Positions 1,374 to 14,098 of a stretch of 20,000 bases of DNA are shown here, in pieces. The notes beneath the pieces are model-generated. The model had not been told where the DNA came from. It ran no database searches and saw nothing but the letters and a program-made list of their open reading frames with translations. Positions within the stretch are counted from its first letter, which is position 1. Every line of letters starts with the position of its first letter. A program made the position numbers and the translations under genes. Source of the stretch: an uncultured virus (IMG/VR IMGVR_UViG_3300035181_000699) (lineage: Duplodnaviria > Heunggongvirae > Uroviricota > Caudoviricetes); the IMG/VR virus record IMGVR_UViG_3300035181_000699; one strand, 5' to 3'.

Positions 1374-2645
1374 ATGGATATGGAAAAGTTGAAGGCATTA
1401 ACTCCTCTAGAGGTGCTTATCTACTGGATGAACGAACGCCATAACATCTATTTGAGGAGGCAGGCAGGGCAACCTTGGCCTTGGACCGACGACCCAATTT
1501 TGCAGAAGCACAAGTTTGCCAACGTCTTTAGGGAGTTGGACAAGACCACTAAGTGGATGAGGGAAAACATAACCAACCCCCACATAGACGACCCGCCTGA
1601 GCTGATGATATTCAATTGTGCGTTGTTTAGGATGGTAGGAACAATTGAATACAGCCAGGCAATTGGTGGGTGGCAGGACCACTTTGACCCCGACAAGCTC
1701 ATAGCAGTAGGGGAACAGCTGCATGCGGCAGGCAAGCCAGTGTTTACTGCCGCGTATATCGTAAGTGGCACCAATTCTGGCATCGGTAACAAACTCAAAT
1801 TGGTGATTGAAGAGAACATGATGGCCCTTTGGCGCAAGCGCAAGGAGCTGGCTCAGATAGCAGCTGACACAAAGCGCATGAGCCAGGTGTTCAAAGCGCT
1901 GATTGAGCTGCCAGGATATGGCGGTTCTGGATTTATGGCGTATGAGCTGGTGACTGACCTACGCTGGACACATGTGTTCGGGCCTGAAGGCCCAACTGAC
2001 ATAATGACTTGGAGTAACCCAGGCCCCGGAGCTAGGGAGGGATTGAATCTTATTCATAATAGACCACTCAACTTTAGGCTAAGGAACGACCTGCTGCTGG
2101 AGGAGATGCAGGAGTTGCTTACTACTTTGCCTTCTCAGCTGGGCCCACACATTCCTCCATTAGAGCTGAGAGACGTGGAACACTGTTTGTGTGAGCTGTC
2201 GAAGTACTGGCGATGCCTACAGGGTCTGGGGTCTACTAGGTCTTTGTATTATAATCCTGACGTTGGGATGCCAGAACCATTTGCCCCCAAAAAGCACAGG
2301 CCAACAACCGTTAAACCAGCAGAAGAAGTAGTCAATACCAGCTTGCTGAGCCGGATTAAACTGGCTTGGAAGGTTTTGTTGGGGGAAAGCCTCCCTGCTC
2401 CGCCAGTTAAACGGGGAAGAAGAGCTAGGAAGACCGCGTTGCCTGAGCAGGAGTTCCCACAAGCGCAGCCCAATTGTGCGATTGACTTAGAGGATGTGCC
2501 CCCAGAACAGCCTGCAGATGAGTTAAAATTGACTCCTCAGCCTGCTAAGCCAAAGCGTAGCCACCACAAGAAGAAAGACCCTAATGCCCCCCCAAGACGT
2601 CGGGGCAGGCCACCTAAGCACCGGCCTCCAGAAGGGTTGGTGTGA
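1374..2645 (+). CDS. 5-hmdU DNA kinase-like (aGPT-Pplase1 / HMUDK helical family) with Lys/Pro-rich AT-hook C-terminal extension
   Basis: ERHNIY..GQPWPWTDDPIL..KFANVFRELDK, GFMAYELVTDL, NPGPGA..GL, RDVEHCLCELSKY; tail contains RRRGRPPK; AGGAG RBS. Confidence 0.85.
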   Translation: MDMEKLKALTPLEVLIYWMNERHNIYLRRQAGQPWPWTDDPILQKHKFANVFRELDKTTKWMRENITNPHIDDPPELMIFNCALFRMVGTIEYSQAIGGWQDHFDPDKLIAVGEQLHAAGKPVFTAAYIVSGTNSGIGNKLKLVIEENMMALWRKRKELAQIAADTKRMSQVFKALIELPGYGGSGFMAYELVTDLRWTHVFGPEGPTDIMTWSNPGPGAREGLNLIHNRPLNFRLRNDLLLEEMQELLTTLPSQLGPHIPPLELRDVEHCLCELSKYWRCLQGLGSTRSLYYNPDVGMPEPFAPKKHRPTTVKPAEEVVNTSLLSRIKLAWKVLLGESLPAPPVKRGRRARKTALPEQEFPQAQPNCAIDLEDVPPEQPADELKLTPQPAKPKRSHHKKKDPNAPPRRRGRPPKHRPPEGLV

Positions 2646-3761: not shown

Positions 3762-3884
3762 GGCGCAGGCACTTCCCTGGCAGGACAGCCCTGCTCGGCC
3801 CAGAGAAGCTGGCGGAAGGGCAAAAAGCAGAGAATGACAGAGGCAAATCACAATAAATAGACTCGCTACATCTTGGGGGAACTG

Positions 3885-4472
3885 ATGGATTACAAAATCT
3901 TGAGCAATGCAGAAGCTGAGGCCCAGTATGCTGACTGGGCCAATATGTTTAAGGTGGACCGTCCTTTTCTGTCAGGTGCAGCTAACATTACACATAGGTT
4001 CGGTCAAGGTGAGGACTCTCTGGAGCACATAGTAATAGGTTATGGCAATAGAGTACTCAGCCTTGTTACATTTCATGTCGGACGGCGCAAGAGAGGCATA
4101 TGGGGCCGGTACTTAAATGTGTACTACGCATACACAATACCAGACTACAGGAGACTCGGTCTTGCCTCTAGTCTTATGCGGTCAGCTGAGGATATAGCTC
4201 GCAGCAAGGAAGCACACAGGATAAAGTCTATTGCAGGGTCTATCAGAGGGTTCTACTTGCATAGACACTTAGGCCATTCTATGTGGGGAGTTACTACAGA
4301 GGGCTCTATTATAGTTGACCACTACCTGGTCCCTGAGTATGACCTTCCAGGAGTGCCTCCAAATGTCTTAGGGTATGCTCCTGATACTAAGGGCACGTTG
4401 TCATACACTGAGGCAGAGAGCCTGTTCAGGGAGCACAAGGTAGGCAAGGCTTGGGCGCTCTTAGAGCAATAG
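3885..4472 (+). CDS. GNAT-family N-acetyltransferase
   Basis: Motif A: YAYTIPDYRRLGLASSLM (RRxGxA acetyl-CoA loop); motif B-like GFYLHRHLG; ATG at 3885 after GGGGGA. Confidence 0.75.
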   Translation: MDYKILSNAEAEAQYADWANMFKVDRPFLSGAANITHRFGQGEDSLEHIVIGYGNRVLSLVTFHVGRRKRGIWGRYLNVYYAYTIPDYRRLGLASSLMRSAEDIARSKEAHRIKSIAGSIRGFYLHRHLGHSMWGVTTEGSIIVDHYLVPEYDLPGVPPNVLGYAPDTKGTLSYTEAESLFREHKVGKAWALLEQ

Positions 4473-9631: not shown

Positions 9632-11512
9632 CTACAGCAATCCTCTCTTAACAACTGGGCCCAGGCCTACAAGCACTCCTTTGTCCATCATAGCGTTCTG
9701 AGCTTCTTCTCTGGGCCATAACCAAGGCTTCTCAGCATTGGGCCACAGCTCCCCTAGATACTCTGGAGGGAAGCAGGCCTTCCTCATCTGCCAAAGCACT
9801 TCCCAGTCAACTCCAACAGTTGACTCTTTATGGTCTTCTTGTATGTGGCATATTTCTTCAGCCAGCCGGTCAATGTAGTAGCCAATGTACCTGTGCCTAC
9901 GATACAGACCTTTGTAGGCACAAAGCGCAGATTCTAACAACCAGTAATCAACAGCTATGTGCGGGAATGTGGCTTTGACTAAATGGTACAGTTCGTCAAG
10001 GTCAGTGTTTAGTTCCTTGAGTATGTCCTTCGTCATCTTGGCATCAACATATTGGTCTTTGCTAACAGCGTAGCACAGCCCGTTCCTACTGCTGAGGGCA
10101 TCGGGTAGGAACATGGTGTCTGCGAGTATTGGCATGCCCATGCATCTGTGTAGAGTTTCAGTGTAGTAGAAGGCACTGTATCGGCCAAACCTGTCAAACT
10201 TCATAACTTCTTTCCAGACATTGTGGAAGTTGACGACAGGGTCTTCAGAGGTCAATAACTCTGCAAACCATTCTTCTTGGGTGCGCTGGCCTATGGCTGC
10301 CTTGTAGGATACAAACATGTCAACCAAATGCCCTTTGCAGTATCTGCGGTCGGTTTCATACCGCAGTTCTCGCCAATGCTGTTTGTGCCACCGCTCAAGT
10401 CTCCCTAAATCAACCTTCTCAAACTCAGGGAATTCTTGCATAAACCAAAAGAGGCTACCAATTTGGTAGAACACCCCATACAACCAACAGACCCAATACT
10501 CCTGTTCCTTGCTGAGTTCATATCTGCGGAACAGATAGTTGATGGCAGGGTATGCTGGGTCAACGTCCCAGGTGACAGTTACAGCCGCATAGTAAAGCAG
10601 GAAAGCCTTCAGCCTGTTTTCTAATTTGCGGAAGTCAAGATGCTGTGCGACAGGAAAGTCTAGCCTGGGGTCAGACTGTACAGCTTCAGGTTGGAGTATT
10701 TCAGGGAATACAAGCTGAGGGCGCTGGAATCTGAATTCTTTGGGGTATTCAAAGGACAAAGGGTATGTATTGTTGGGGTTCTGAACGTCTATGATTGTAT
10801 ATGGGGGTACTTCCTGGTGCTCAATAGTCATTTGCATCCGCTCAGCTACCCTGTTGATGATGTCCTCTGTGCTAGCAAACCCTTTGACACCTAGCGAGGC
10901 AATGGAGAACAGCCACAGAGGCCTGATATGGTCTCTGACGCATAACATAGGCAGCCAACGCCCCATTATGCCTAGAGCGAAGACGGGAGGTTCAATCCCG
11001 TGGATACGGTGCAGTGCTTTGCCAAGAGCATTAGCCAGTGTGGCAGAGCTGCGGTCTTCAAGAGGGTCCTCTTTGATTGCTCTAAGCACGTGCTGTAGAA
11101 TCACTTCAGAATCATTGTAGGAATTGGTCTTGATGCCATACTGGTTCTCGAATTCTTCCTTAGTGCCCATGGACACAAGTCCATTATGTACCAAGGAAAC
11201 TTCTTCTGCCTCAAGTGGCTGGTTATTGGCATTGTCATCCCAGTCCCCGCTGGTAGAGTACCGGCAGTGCCCCAGGACTCGAACGTTGACCCCACCTATG
11301 GGCACTGACGTGTTGTACATATTGGTCTTGACAAATTCTGTAGCAGGCACAGGATGTTTGACAGTCACCAGGTTAGGCACCATGCCACTGCTCCAGGTCA
11401 CACCAGTGGCATGCCTCCCCCTGACTTGGCTCTCAAGCAATAGAGCTTCAGTCAGCTTAGCATGATTTTCGTTGAATTCTCCTTCAACTACAAACCCAAA
11501 TATGCCGCACAT
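9632..11512 (-). CDS. Fusion of class II (Ntn) glutamine amidotransferase and amino acid:DNA transferase (aGPT-Pplase2/AADT) domain
   Basis: N-terminal: MCGIFG (Cys nucleophile), RGRHATG, LGHCRYST, NNQPL, VHNG, DSEVI, RD..RPL. C-terminal: DVDPAY, ETDRRYCKG, FGRYSAFYYTE, LESALCAYK, RYIGYYIDR. AAGGAGG RBS. Confidence 0.8.
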   Translation of the reverse strand: MCGIFGFVVEGEFNENHAKLTEALLLESQVRGRHATGVTWSSGMVPNLVTVKHPVPATEFVKTNMYNTSVPIGGVNVRVLGHCRYSTSGDWDDNANNQPLEAEEVSLVHNGLVSMGTKEEFENQYGIKTNSYNDSEVILQHVLRAIKEDPLEDRSSATLANALGKALHRIHGIEPPVFALGIMGRWLPMLCVRDHIRPLWLFSIASLGVKGFASTEDIINRVAERMQMTIEHQEVPPYTIIDVQNPNNTYPLSFEYPKEFRFQRPQLVFPEILQPEAVQSDPRLDFPVAQHLDFRKLENRLKAFLLYYAAVTVTWDVDPAYPAINYLFRRYELSKEQEYWVCWLYGVFYQIGSLFWFMQEFPEFEKVDLGRLERWHKQHWRELRYETDRRYCKGHLVDMFVSYKAAIGQRTQEEWFAELLTSEDPVVNFHNVWKEVMKFDRFGRYSAFYYTETLHRCMGMPILADTMFLPDALSSRNGLCYAVSKDQYVDAKMTKDILKELNTDLDELYHLVKATFPHIAVDYWLLESALCAYKGLYRRHRYIGYYIDRLAEEICHIQEDHKESTVGVDWEVLWQMRKACFPPEYLGELWPNAEKPWLWPREEAQNAMMDKGVLVGLGPVVKRGLL

Positions 11513-12665: not shown

Positions 12666-12693
12666 TATTCAGCTTTTCAGATAATAAGTTAAG
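12666..12693 (-). promoter_or_regulatory. Putative phage promoter CTTAA-N15-GCTGAATA
   Basis: Overlaps the helicase stop codon; matches the other copies. Confidence 0.6.
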
Positions 12694-14098
12694 CAGCTTG
12701 AGACTGTAGCAGAGCCAGCAGTGTGTCCGCCGCTGGAGCTGGGGGGCTATCTACCTGACCAGCCGTTGCCGCCGACGCCATGCTTCTCTTGCCTTCTATC
12801 ATGCTGTAAGCATACTCATCAACCGTCTTCGGGGCAAGCAAATACCAGCAGTTGACTGGCTGAGTTTGCCCAATTCTGTGTACCCTGTCCTCTGCTTGGT
12901 CGTGCTCTGCTGAGTTCCACCCTAGCTCTACAAATGCCACGTTGGAGGCAGCTGTTAGAGTGAGACCCACTCCCGCAGCCTTCAGCGAGCAGATTATCAA
13001 CTGGCAGTTGGGGTCGGTTTGGAATCTGTGCACTTGCTGATTCCTAACTTCTGCGCTGTCCTCCCCCAAAATGTGTGCTGAGTTAGGCCACAGCGCCAGC
13101 AGCTTGCGTTGAACTTCTACATGCTCGGCGAAGAGAACCAGCTTAGACCCAGTGGACAGAAACGTTTCCACCCAGTTCTGCACTCCTTGCAGTTTGCCCA
13201 GCCCAACCATCAGCCTCAATTGCTCCAGGCCTCCGAGCAAGGAGAAGTTTTCGTCCTTGCTATGCCTCAATATCTCCTTGACCTTTCGGTTGTAGTCTTC
13301 CAGGTTGCTCAGCTCCAGGTGTATTATGGTCCTCTGCTTTGCTGGCAGCTCCTTCAGCACATCTTTCTTCTCTCGACGCAAGTAGCACGACTGTCTCAGA
13401 GTAGCATTGAGCTTGGTCATGTTATGGATGTTGATAGTCTTGAAAGAGCCTCCATTGCAGTATTGATGAGAAAACCACCAAAACCCGCCCAGAGCTTTCA
13501 TTTGGTCTAGCATAGACAGCAGAGCAACCAGCTCGTCTGGCCGATTCAATATTGGTGTTCCTGTCAAAAGCAGCCGTATGTCAATCATGCTGGCAAGATG
13601 CTTGACGCTCCCTGTGCGTTGGGCCTTTGGGTTTTTGATGTAGTGTGCTTCGTCTAGCACCAGAGACTTGGCTCTCAACTCTATCAGCTTTCTGTGCCAA
13701 TAGTATGCTATGTCATAATTCAGAATGATTATGTCTGCGTCTATGTCATATGGGGATGTGCCTTGCAGCACCTGCGCTTTCCTAGCAGGCAGCCATTTGT
13801 GGGCTTCTTCCGCCCAGTTTAATTTCAAAGACGCTGGGCTGATAACAATACAAGGAAATGCCTTGTTGTGCTCTACGGTTGCCAAGGTCTGTATTGTTTT
13901 ACCCAGGCCCATCTCGTCAGCAAGCAGCACCCGTTTCCGGGATGACATATACCTCACGCCAGCAGCTTGATATCCTCTCAGCTTGCCAGCGAAGTTGGGG
14001 ATGTCAATATCTGACTCATCCAAGGCATTCCTTGCAGGTTGTGCGTTGAACAGCTTATCCCATATGCCCATGTCTATACCTCTGCCAGCTGCTACCAT
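12689..14098 (-). CDS. SNF2-family helicase/ATPase, SMARCAL1/HARP-like
   Basis: LLADEMGLGKT, DEAH, LTGTP, RREKKDVLKELPAK, AAGVGLTLTAA, QAEDRVHRIGQ; the start may be 14071. Confidence 0.9.
   Translation of the reverse strand: MVAAGRGIDMGIWDKLFNAQPARNALDESDIDIPNFAGKLRGYQAAGVRYMSSRKRVLLADEMGLGKTIQTLATVEHNKAFPCIVISPASLKLNWAEEAHKWLPARKAQVLQGTSPYDIDADIIILNYDIAYYWHRKLIELRAKSLVLDEAHYIKNPKAQRTGSVKHLASMIDIRLLLTGTPILNRPDELVALLSMLDQMKALGGFWWFSHQYCNGGSFKTINIHNMTKLNATLRQSCYLRREKKDVLKELPAKQRTIIHLELSNLEDYNRKVKEILRHSKDENFSLLGGLEQLRLMVGLGKLQGVQNWVETFLSTGSKLVLFAEHVEVQRKLLALWPNSAHILGEDSAEVRNQQVHRFQTDPNCQLIICSLKAAGVGLTLTAASNVAFVELGWNSAEHDQAEDRVHRIGQTQPVNCWYLLAPKTVDEYAYSMIEGKRSMASAATAGQVDSPPAPAADTLLALLQSQAA

Follow-up and report, generated by a model that had tools for sequence, protein, structure and literature searches.

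We describe a gene from an uncultured phage (IMG/VR record IMGVR_UViG_3300035181_000699, Caudoviricetes) whose 626-amino-acid (aa) product joins a glutamine amidotransferase (GATase) to an amino acid:DNA transferase (AADT). The gene lies in a stretch of 20,000 nucleotides (nt), here called the window, which corresponds to positions 13672–33671 of a 33,685-base IMG/VR viral contig (CheckV, 43% complete). Judging from the sequence of the protein and its relatives, we think it probable that glutamine-derived ammonia attacks the methylene formed from 5-phosphomethyl-2'-deoxyuridine (5-PmdU) in DNA, giving 5-aminomethyl-2'-deoxyuridine (5-NmdU) in one step.

Phages use thymidine hypermodifications as a shield for their DNA against restriction and other nucleases, and the enzymes involved are used to write and read modified DNA. 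In the published pathways two steps lead to the aminomethyl base, transfer of glycine followed by flavin-dependent cleavage. If our proposal is true, ammonia would join the nucleophiles used by AADTs, and a kinase plus a single enzyme would make up a compact route by which defined thymines are given a reactive primary amine. For expression and assay the simplest choice is the fused form.

The fusion gene and its product

The open reading frame (ORF) starts ATG-TGC, which makes cysteine residue 2 of a protein beginning MCGIFG, and the sequence AGGAGG lies 13 nt 5' of the ATG (coordinates are given in Table 1). A first-pass annotation, made from the letters of the window and their translations, had described a single ORF at this location and had named an N-terminal nucleophile (Ntn) class II GATase joined to an AADT, with motifs for each. 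The ORF is as described, on the minus strand, and all of the motifs are present: GHCRYSTSG (81–89), VHNG (108–111) and NDSE (133–136) in the GATase half, and DVDPAY (316–321), ETDRRYCK (386–393), FGRYSAF (442–448), ESALCAYK (527–534) and RYIGYYIDR (541–549) in the AADT half. The profile searches that it had proposed place both domains above the curated Pfam cut-offs: GATase_6 [aa 79–144, E 9.1e-9, 35.9 bits against 27] and ADDT [PF18724, aa 326–535, E 5e-23, 82.5 bits against 26.2]. A weak match to aGPT-Pplase3 covers the same C-terminal region as ADDT.

A word-indexed search of 5.8 billion proteins returned 79 matches to the fusion protein, 64 of them with at least 91% query coverage (36–91% identity, 541–671 aa), and 61 of these 64 possess both PF13522 and PF18724. 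A 100% identical protein is encoded on an independent viral contig (L003). Because full-coverage homologues carry both domains, and the identical protein occurs on a separate contig, the fusion is not an assembly artefact. Exhaustive comparison with 1.84 billion cluster representatives produced 2415 matches at E ≤ 0.001, of which 72 reached E ≤ 1e-30; some eight of the representatives have the length of a fusion, the remainder that of an AADT or a GATase alone.

The full 626-aa chain was modelled by AlphaFold2 from a 62-row alignment with a mean pLDDT of 93.7 and a pTM of 0.93, the latter implying, for the model at least, a fixed packing of the two domains. The segment between them is not present in the split forms described below.

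Fused and split relatives

A pattern and tblastn scan of IMG/VR yielded 70 loci, whose genes were called as longest ORFs and clustered by BLASTP. ORFs of the GATase/AADT cluster were present in 66 of the 70, and in none of L010, L039, L050 and L061. For the count of architectures the locus with the identical protein (L003) was left out and the window's own contig added, so that 66 loci were classified: six are fused, 50 are split into two adjacent genes (GATase of about 199 aa, AADT of about 293 aa) and ten are of other or fragmentary form. Among 26 non-redundant split pairs the overlap between the GATase and AADT genes is 1–89 nt, most commonly 13. The coupling of GATase and AADT resembles a Rosetta-stone case, the two occurring either as a fusion or as adjacent, overlapping genes.

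In one atypical locus (L066:5376–11835) the GATase and AADT genes are about 3 kb apart. Between them are genes for two paralogous amidoligases, a GNAT-like protein and a SET-domain protein, and an NAD-dependent epimerase and an HMUD2-type kinase are encoded nearby.

A quick IQ-TREE analysis of 87 AADT domains, including 52 fused and 26 split rows, grouped all 52 fused rows together (SH-aLRT 92) and put 25 of the 26 split rows in a separate clade (99). The glycine transferases of phages M6 and PaMx11 are very distant from the GATase-linked AADTs. The fusion gene had no megablast match in 50,697 phage records, a collection from which records near its source may be missing, and tblastn found C-terminal matches only (513 records, none covering 80% or more). 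No cultured phage in this collection has the fusion or a close relative of its AADT, the best reaching 28% identity.

The glutaminase domain

A profile built from 62 fused homologues matched only glutaminase domains in the PDB, that of PurF being best [E 1.3e-12, query positions 1–191] and GlmS next. Foldseek likewise related the model to the glutaminase domain of GlmS [1xff_B, TMt 0.77, rmsd 3.3], which has the Ntn alpha-beta-beta-alpha fold. Arg84, Asn110, Gly111 and Asp134 are invariant across the 62 fused homologues and Cys2 is present in at least 90%. Among 26 non-redundant split GATases, 22 have Met-Cys at the start of the longest ORF; the other four, whose start codons are ambiguous, were omitted from an alignment of 23 rows (22 split GATases and the window domain), none of which departs from Cys2, Arg, Asn-Gly or Asp.

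In class II GATases such as GlmS and PurF the arginine binds the carboxylate of glutamine, Asn-Gly forms the oxyanion hole and the aspartate binds the alpha-amine, and the set of Cys, Arg, Asn-Gly and Asp constitutes a working glutaminase site for free L-glutamine. By its residues and fold the Ntn domain appears to be an intact glutaminase, with predicted activity of that kind.

The AADT domain and its nucleophile pocket

The aGPT-Pplases, among which this domain is of the aGPT-Pplase2 or PUGT-like type, were reportedly defined by Iyer et al. in 2013. The profile of fused homologues gave no PDB sequence match over the C-terminal half. Folded alone, aa 265–626 gave a pLDDT of 94.5 and a pTM of 0.92, and the top Foldseek match of this model was the glycine:DNA transferase gp46 of PaMx11 (PUGT) [8z2m, E 5.7e-4, probability 1.00, TMt 0.63]; only two matches reached E ≤ 0.001, both of them gp46/PUGT (8z2m and 8z2n). 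The first-pass annotation had staked its reading on an AADT or helix-hairpin-helix (HhH)-like fold here, and since the top match is PUGT, with its two-helix bundle resembling HhH glycosylases, that is the fold which the model has.

In an L-INS-i alignment of the 87 AADT domains, PUGT residues Asp24, Gly144, Glu243, Thr244 and Cys247 correspond to Asp318, Gly443, Glu527, Ser528 and Cys531 of the window protein. These five positions are conserved in every GATase-linked row, and the Glu and Cys, which the split AADTs also retain, are invariant in 87 of 87. Replacement of the catalytic Cys or the nearby Glu is reported to abolish the activity of M6 gp51 and ViI gp247 (Lee 2021; PMC11472151). In the mechanism given by Lee 2021 and by the structure paper of 2024 (PMC11472151), attack of this Cys on C6 of 5-phosphomethyl-dU is followed by departure of phosphate, and a nucleophile then adds to the exocyclic methylene so formed. 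Lee 2021 reports that this intermediate takes varied nucleophiles, mercaptoethanol and borohydride included, and that the AADTs transfer glycine, serine and putrescine.

PUGT is described as clamping glycine through Trp146, which holds the carboxylate, and through Lys150 and Asp24, which hold the amine (PMC11472151). None of the 78 GATase-linked AADTs keeps Trp146 or Lys150. Position 146 is Tyr or His in fused and Phe or Tyr in split proteins (Tyr445 in the window protein); position 150 is Ile, Ala or Tyr when fused, and Leu, Ile or Asn when split, being Lys in none of the 78 (Tyr449 in the window protein). Lys150 is retained in M6 gp51, PaMx11 gp46 and PhiW-14 gp109. The basis of this comparison is the fold match together with the L-INS-i alignment, in preference to hhalign. 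It suggests that the glycine-holding residues have been lost from the GATase-linked AADTs, and a pocket without its charged amino-acid clamp would be expected of an enzyme whose co-substrate is ammonia.

Gene neighbourhoods

For the loci related to the fusion, Pfam was scanned (E ≤ 0.001) with 56 cluster representatives and with another 116 neighbours that were 100 aa or longer. Within five ORFs on either side of the 50 split loci a P-loop kinase occurs in 47, a ParB-like gene in 40 and a TET/JBP dioxygenase in 37, the usual order being ParB, kinase, GATase, AADT and TET/JBP. At four of the six fused loci a P-loop kinase, HMUDK_hel and a thymidylate synthase (TS)-like gene lie directly downstream, an order which parallels PaMx11 gp46–gp51. 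The TS-like genes beside these four suggest that 5-hydroxymethyl-2'-deoxyuridine (5-hmdU) is made before replication. No flavin oxidoreductase, pyridoxal phosphate (PLP) enzyme or radical S-adenosylmethionine (SAM) enzyme was found among the 172 neighbour representatives, and a scan of 42 ORFs on the window's contig gave no FAD, PLP or radical-SAM enzyme either. That contig does fit the setting of thymidine hypermodification which had been claimed from the letters alone, with two HMUDK_hel genes and a GNAT gene in the window and a P-loop kinase elsewhere on it.

The optional extra members of these cassettes are of amine-acylating types. A clear GNAT was found in seven of 56 fused or split-adjacent loci, and a weakly GNAT-like protein in nine. 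An Amidoligase_2 protein is present in seven loci, 59 of the 66 classified loci being without one. These belong to a family of about 310 aa encoded directly 3' of the GATase-AADT pair (L033:11630–12607 and nine other ORFs), seven of whose ten members match Amidoligase_2 [best E 3.7e-9], and the family suggests that in those phages the new amine is elaborated through an amide link. Within five ORFs of the split loci, 36 of 50 are without a GNAT-like gene and 46 of 50 without an amidoligase.

A 212-aa protein is encoded between the kinase and GATase genes in 12 loci (L049:9350–9988 and 11 other ORFs; cluster c11, seven aligned). Its GNAT matches are weak [E 0.004–0.009] and it may be a divergent acyltransferase. 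For the conserved families c50, c96 and c97 relaxed Pfam scans gave nothing credible. One split cassette has, a few genes upstream, an ORF (L064:22–630) whose product is homologous to Tad3, an inhibitor of Thoeris [E 1.5e-21].

Proposed reaction

We would assume that a phage kinase phosphorylates 5-hmdU within the polymer to give 5-PmdU, the candidates being the two HMUDK_hel proteins of the window and the HMUDK_HMUD1 protein encoded elsewhere on the contig. The AADT domain would then flip the phosphorylated base out, Cys531 would add to C6 and phosphate would leave, forming the exocyclic C5 methylene, as is established for PaMx11 gp46/PUGT and M6 gp51. Meanwhile the Ntn domain would hydrolyse free L-glutamine by means of Cys2, and the ammonia would pass to the AADT site. 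There ammonia, instead of glycine or serine, would add to the methylene, and departure of Cys531 would leave 5-NmdU. In the window's phage the GNAT may acylate this amine to yield a base resembling 5-acetylaminomethyl-2'-deoxyuridine (5-AcNmdU); in related cassettes which lack an acylating enzyme the bare amine would presumably be the end product.

PurF channels glutamine-derived ammonia to an activated carbon, where the ammonia takes the place of a phosphoryl leaving group, and the proposed reaction would, by analogy, follow the same scheme with a base in DNA as acceptor. A broader statement, which we offer only tentatively, is that the family is a DNA-level counterpart of PurF, its acceptor an activated base in polymeric DNA, and that unsubstituted 5-aminomethyluracil is the final virion base where the cassette is minimal. 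Were this so, a base so far known only as an intermediate of the PaMx11 pathway would be an end product.

One-step amination by ammonia, bypassing the transfer of glycine and its cleavage by a flavin enzyme, was already the suggestion of the first-pass annotation. The constant coupling of GATase and AADT, the lack of FAD, PLP and radical-SAM enzymes among the neighbours scanned, and the lost glycine clamp are consistent with it. The analysis shows which domains these are, that their catalytic residues are intact, that their coupling is conserved and what genes surround them; the chemistry itself, from hydrolysis of glutamine and passage of ammonia between the domains to the nucleophile, the product and its acetylation, is something that we infer.

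Several points tell against the proposal. The conserved Ntn residues would fit a gamma-glutamyl amidohydrolase equally well. The mapping of the PUGT residues comes from a MAFFT alignment at about 16% identity, and hhalign of the split-AADT profile with PaMx11 gp46 gave 39 columns at a probability of 7%, although the FG motif agrees. In the IQ-TREE analysis the fused and split groups form a polytomy with the ViI-type serine transferases. The window's GNAT gene lies some 5 kb from the fusion gene on the opposite strand, and its product has no specific BLASTP similarity to PaMx11 gp48. Neither PF00303 (dUMP hydroxymethylase/TS-like) nor PF12851 (TET/JBP) was found in the 33.7-kb contig, itself only about 43% complete; with no such gene on the contig the source of 5-hmdU in this phage was not seen. 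Lastly, full-text literature searches, with supplements and the 2013 work of Iyer outside their scope, returned no tested function for any GATase-AADT member.

Alternative explanations

The same product could arise without free ammonia if the side-chain amide nitrogen of glutamine attacked the methylene, forming an N5-substituted glutamine linked to the DNA, and an EgtC-like cleavage by the Ntn domain then released glutamate, leaving 5-NmdU on the DNA. Ntn domains which cleave gamma-glutamyl bonds keep the same Cys, Arg, Asn-Gly and Asp, and tight coupling of the domains fits this route equally well. However, amide nitrogens are poor nucleophiles; the adduct, still bound to DNA, would need to move from the AADT pocket into the glutaminase pocket; and PurF and GlmS, the nearest relatives in sequence and fold, are true ammonia-channelling enzymes. 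We regard this route as unlikely. We judge equally improbable, and favour less than attack by ammonia, the transfer of whole glutamine or glutamate through its alpha-amine, followed by deamidation or trimming by the Ntn domain to an alpha-glutamylthymidine-like base, which the first-pass annotation had itself put forward as an alternative. Such a base exists in phage SP10 and the known AADTs do transfer amines of several kinds, glycine, serine and putrescine among them (Lee 2021). Yet the invariant Asp134 and Arg84 are residues with which class II GATases bind the free alpha-amino group and alpha-carboxylate of glutamine, so that glutamine tethered by its alpha-amine would not fit; the Lys and Trp with which PUGT holds its amino acid appear to be lost; and glutamate being abundant, deamidation would bring no obvious benefit.

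It is also conceivable that the glutaminase supplies ammonia to some other reaction, such as amidation of a carboxylate by an amidoligase, while the AADT uses another cellular amine. The Amidoligase_2 proteins which follow the GATase-AADT pair in seven loci would suit this, as would phage GATases that accompany amidoligases in clusters without a Pfam-detectable AADT, for example LUZ24 gp16–gp22. Against it, most of the classified loci (59 of 66) have no amidoligase, adjacency or fusion of GATase and AADT being the constant feature, and the partner in the fusion is an AADT with no ATP-grasp or synthetase domain; we consider it more unlikely still than transfer of a whole amino acid. Finally, both halves of glutamine might be used, the new amine capturing the gamma-glutamyl thioester on Cys2 to form a gamma-glutamyl-aminomethyl base. 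Nothing speaks for this directly, but transpeptidating Ntn enzymes make it chemically conceivable. Since the two active sites are in separate domains, and the co-occurring GNATs and amidoligases suggest a free amine available to other acyl donors, we think it very improbable. Attack by ammonia is the reading that we prefer to all four.

Other genes of the window and contig

The features of the window, together with the kinase encoded outside it, are collected in Table 1. For the 138-aa C-terminal extension of the larger HMUDK_hel protein there was no Pfam match at E ≤ 1, and relaxed Pfam scans of the two ORFs flanking the fusion gene gave nothing credible. The GNAT was considered as an orthologue of the known 5-NmdU acetyltransferase, PaMx11 gp48, and this identification was dropped, there being no meaningful BLASTP similarity and no tblastn match in the phage records at E ≤ 0.01.

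Table 1. Positions of the fusion gene, its parts and other genes (window coordinates unless indicated)
Feature	Position	Strand	Evidence or remark
GATase-AADT fusion gene, 626 aa + stop	9632..11512	minus	ORF call, Pfam, homologue search, AlphaFold2
Class II (Ntn) glutaminase domain, aa 1–250	10763..11512	minus	Pfam GATase_6, PDB profile, Foldseek, conservation
Glutaminase catalytic codons	Cys2 11507–11509; Arg84 11261–11263; Asn110-Gly111 11180–11185; Asp134 11111–11113	minus	
Inter-domain segment, aa 251–293	10634..10762	minus	Lowest-confidence part of model, 10-residue block means 70–91
AADT (aGPT-Pplase2/PUGT-like) domain, aa 294–591	9740..10633	minus	
AADT key codons	Asp318 10559–10561; Gly443 10184–10186; Glu527 9932–9934; Ser528 9929–9931; catalytic Cys531 9920–9922	minus	
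C-terminal tail, aa 592–626	9635..9739	minus	Present in fused forms; most split AADTs without it
Flanking ORF, 106 aa	9261..9581	minus	No informative family
Flanking ORF, 252 aa	11884..12642	minus	phrog_13400 match only
SNF2-family helicase	12689–14098		Beyond the 252-aa flanking ORF
HMUDK_hel protein, 423 aa, with 138-aa C-terminal extension	1374..2645	plus	Pfam E 6.1e-52
Second HMUDK_hel paralogue, 295 aa	5619..6506	minus	Pfam E 2.7e-50
GNAT acetyltransferase, 199 aa, candidate amine acylator	3873..4472	plus	Acetyltransf_1 E 3e-7
HMUDK_HMUD1 P-loop 5-hmdU DNA kinase	G000:C1:4114–4692		Own contig, outside the window

Also outside the window, the same contig encodes a DNA polymerase A of 865 aa (L002:1520–4117), which carries a uracil-DNA glycosylase (UDG) domain at its N-terminus [UDG, E 2.4e-25; DNA_pol_A, E 6e-87]. 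Fusions of this type have been described for phages with T-modified genomes (PMC13697223). The phage group has a replicase-UDG fusion of a second kind as well, next to a split GATase-AADT-amidoligase-kinase cassette: a 1133-aa DNA polymerase III alpha (PHP, NTPase and finger regions) with a C-terminal UDG [L063:4263–7664, E 1.1e-19].

Comparison with known systems

The association of these genes has already been published, and the first-pass annotation, which had allowed for an earlier computational mention, was right to do so. Lee 2021 notes amidotransferase or "glutaminotransferase" domains adjoining kinase and AADT genes, and gives them no function where they are listed; O'Toole 2026 describes ParB-dependent T-dioxygenases with GATases, P-loop kinases and AADTs as neighbours, and assigns no reaction in that description. 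A glutamine-driven one-step amination, if true, would provide a function for amidotransferase genes which two papers list without explanation. The metavirome cassettes of ParB, P-loop kinase, GATase, AADT and TET/JBP (Lee 2021 NAR; O'Toole 2026 PNAS, ParB-dependent 5mYOX clade C1) have the same two domains, conserved residues included, encoded by neighbouring genes, and are expected to carry out the same predicted chemistry. They differ in that their domains are split, whereas those of the window are fused, and in that their 5-hmU is described as made post-replicatively by TET/JBP.

When a split GATase was compared with the phage records, the matches were chiefly to LUZ24-like Pseudomonas phages (160 records). 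LUZ24 gp19 (L073:5001–6533) was considered as a member of the same system and set aside, its GATase having a C-terminus which is not an AADT. This protein is a class II GATase fused to a region of about 300 aa without a Pfam family, and its cluster includes a COOH-NH2 ligase, an amidoligase, a protein annotated as RimK-like and a gamma-glutamyl cyclotransferase. A system of this type, distinct from GATase-AADT, is found in about 120 Pseudomonas phage records.

Among characterized pathways that of PaMx11, which leads to 5-AcNmdU, is the natural comparison. It employs the glycine:DNA transferase gp46 (PUGT, 8Z2M/8Z2N), the FAD lyase gp47 (NGTO), the acetyltransferase gp48 and the kinase gp49. 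Unlike gp46, the fusion carries an Ntn glutaminase and has replaced the glycine-holding Trp146 and Lys150, and no FAD lyase of the NGTO kind occurs among the contig ORFs or neighbours scanned; gp46 itself does not match the split-AADT HMM at E ≤ 1e-3. The nearest AADTs of cultured phages are the serine:DNA transferases of the ViI gp247 type from Ackermannviridae (25–28% identity, 99–129 bits to the split-AADT HMM). These share the catalytic residues of the fusion's AADT, but they stand alone without a GATase, use the hydroxyl of serine and are followed by a PLP decarboxylase.

With PurF and GlmS the fusion protein shares an N-terminal class II Ntn glutaminase whose cysteine comes directly after the initiating methionine. 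In place of a phosphoribosyltransferase or isomerase, its acceptor domain is a helical, HhH-glycosylase-like base-flipper, and the acceptor would be a base in polymeric DNA.

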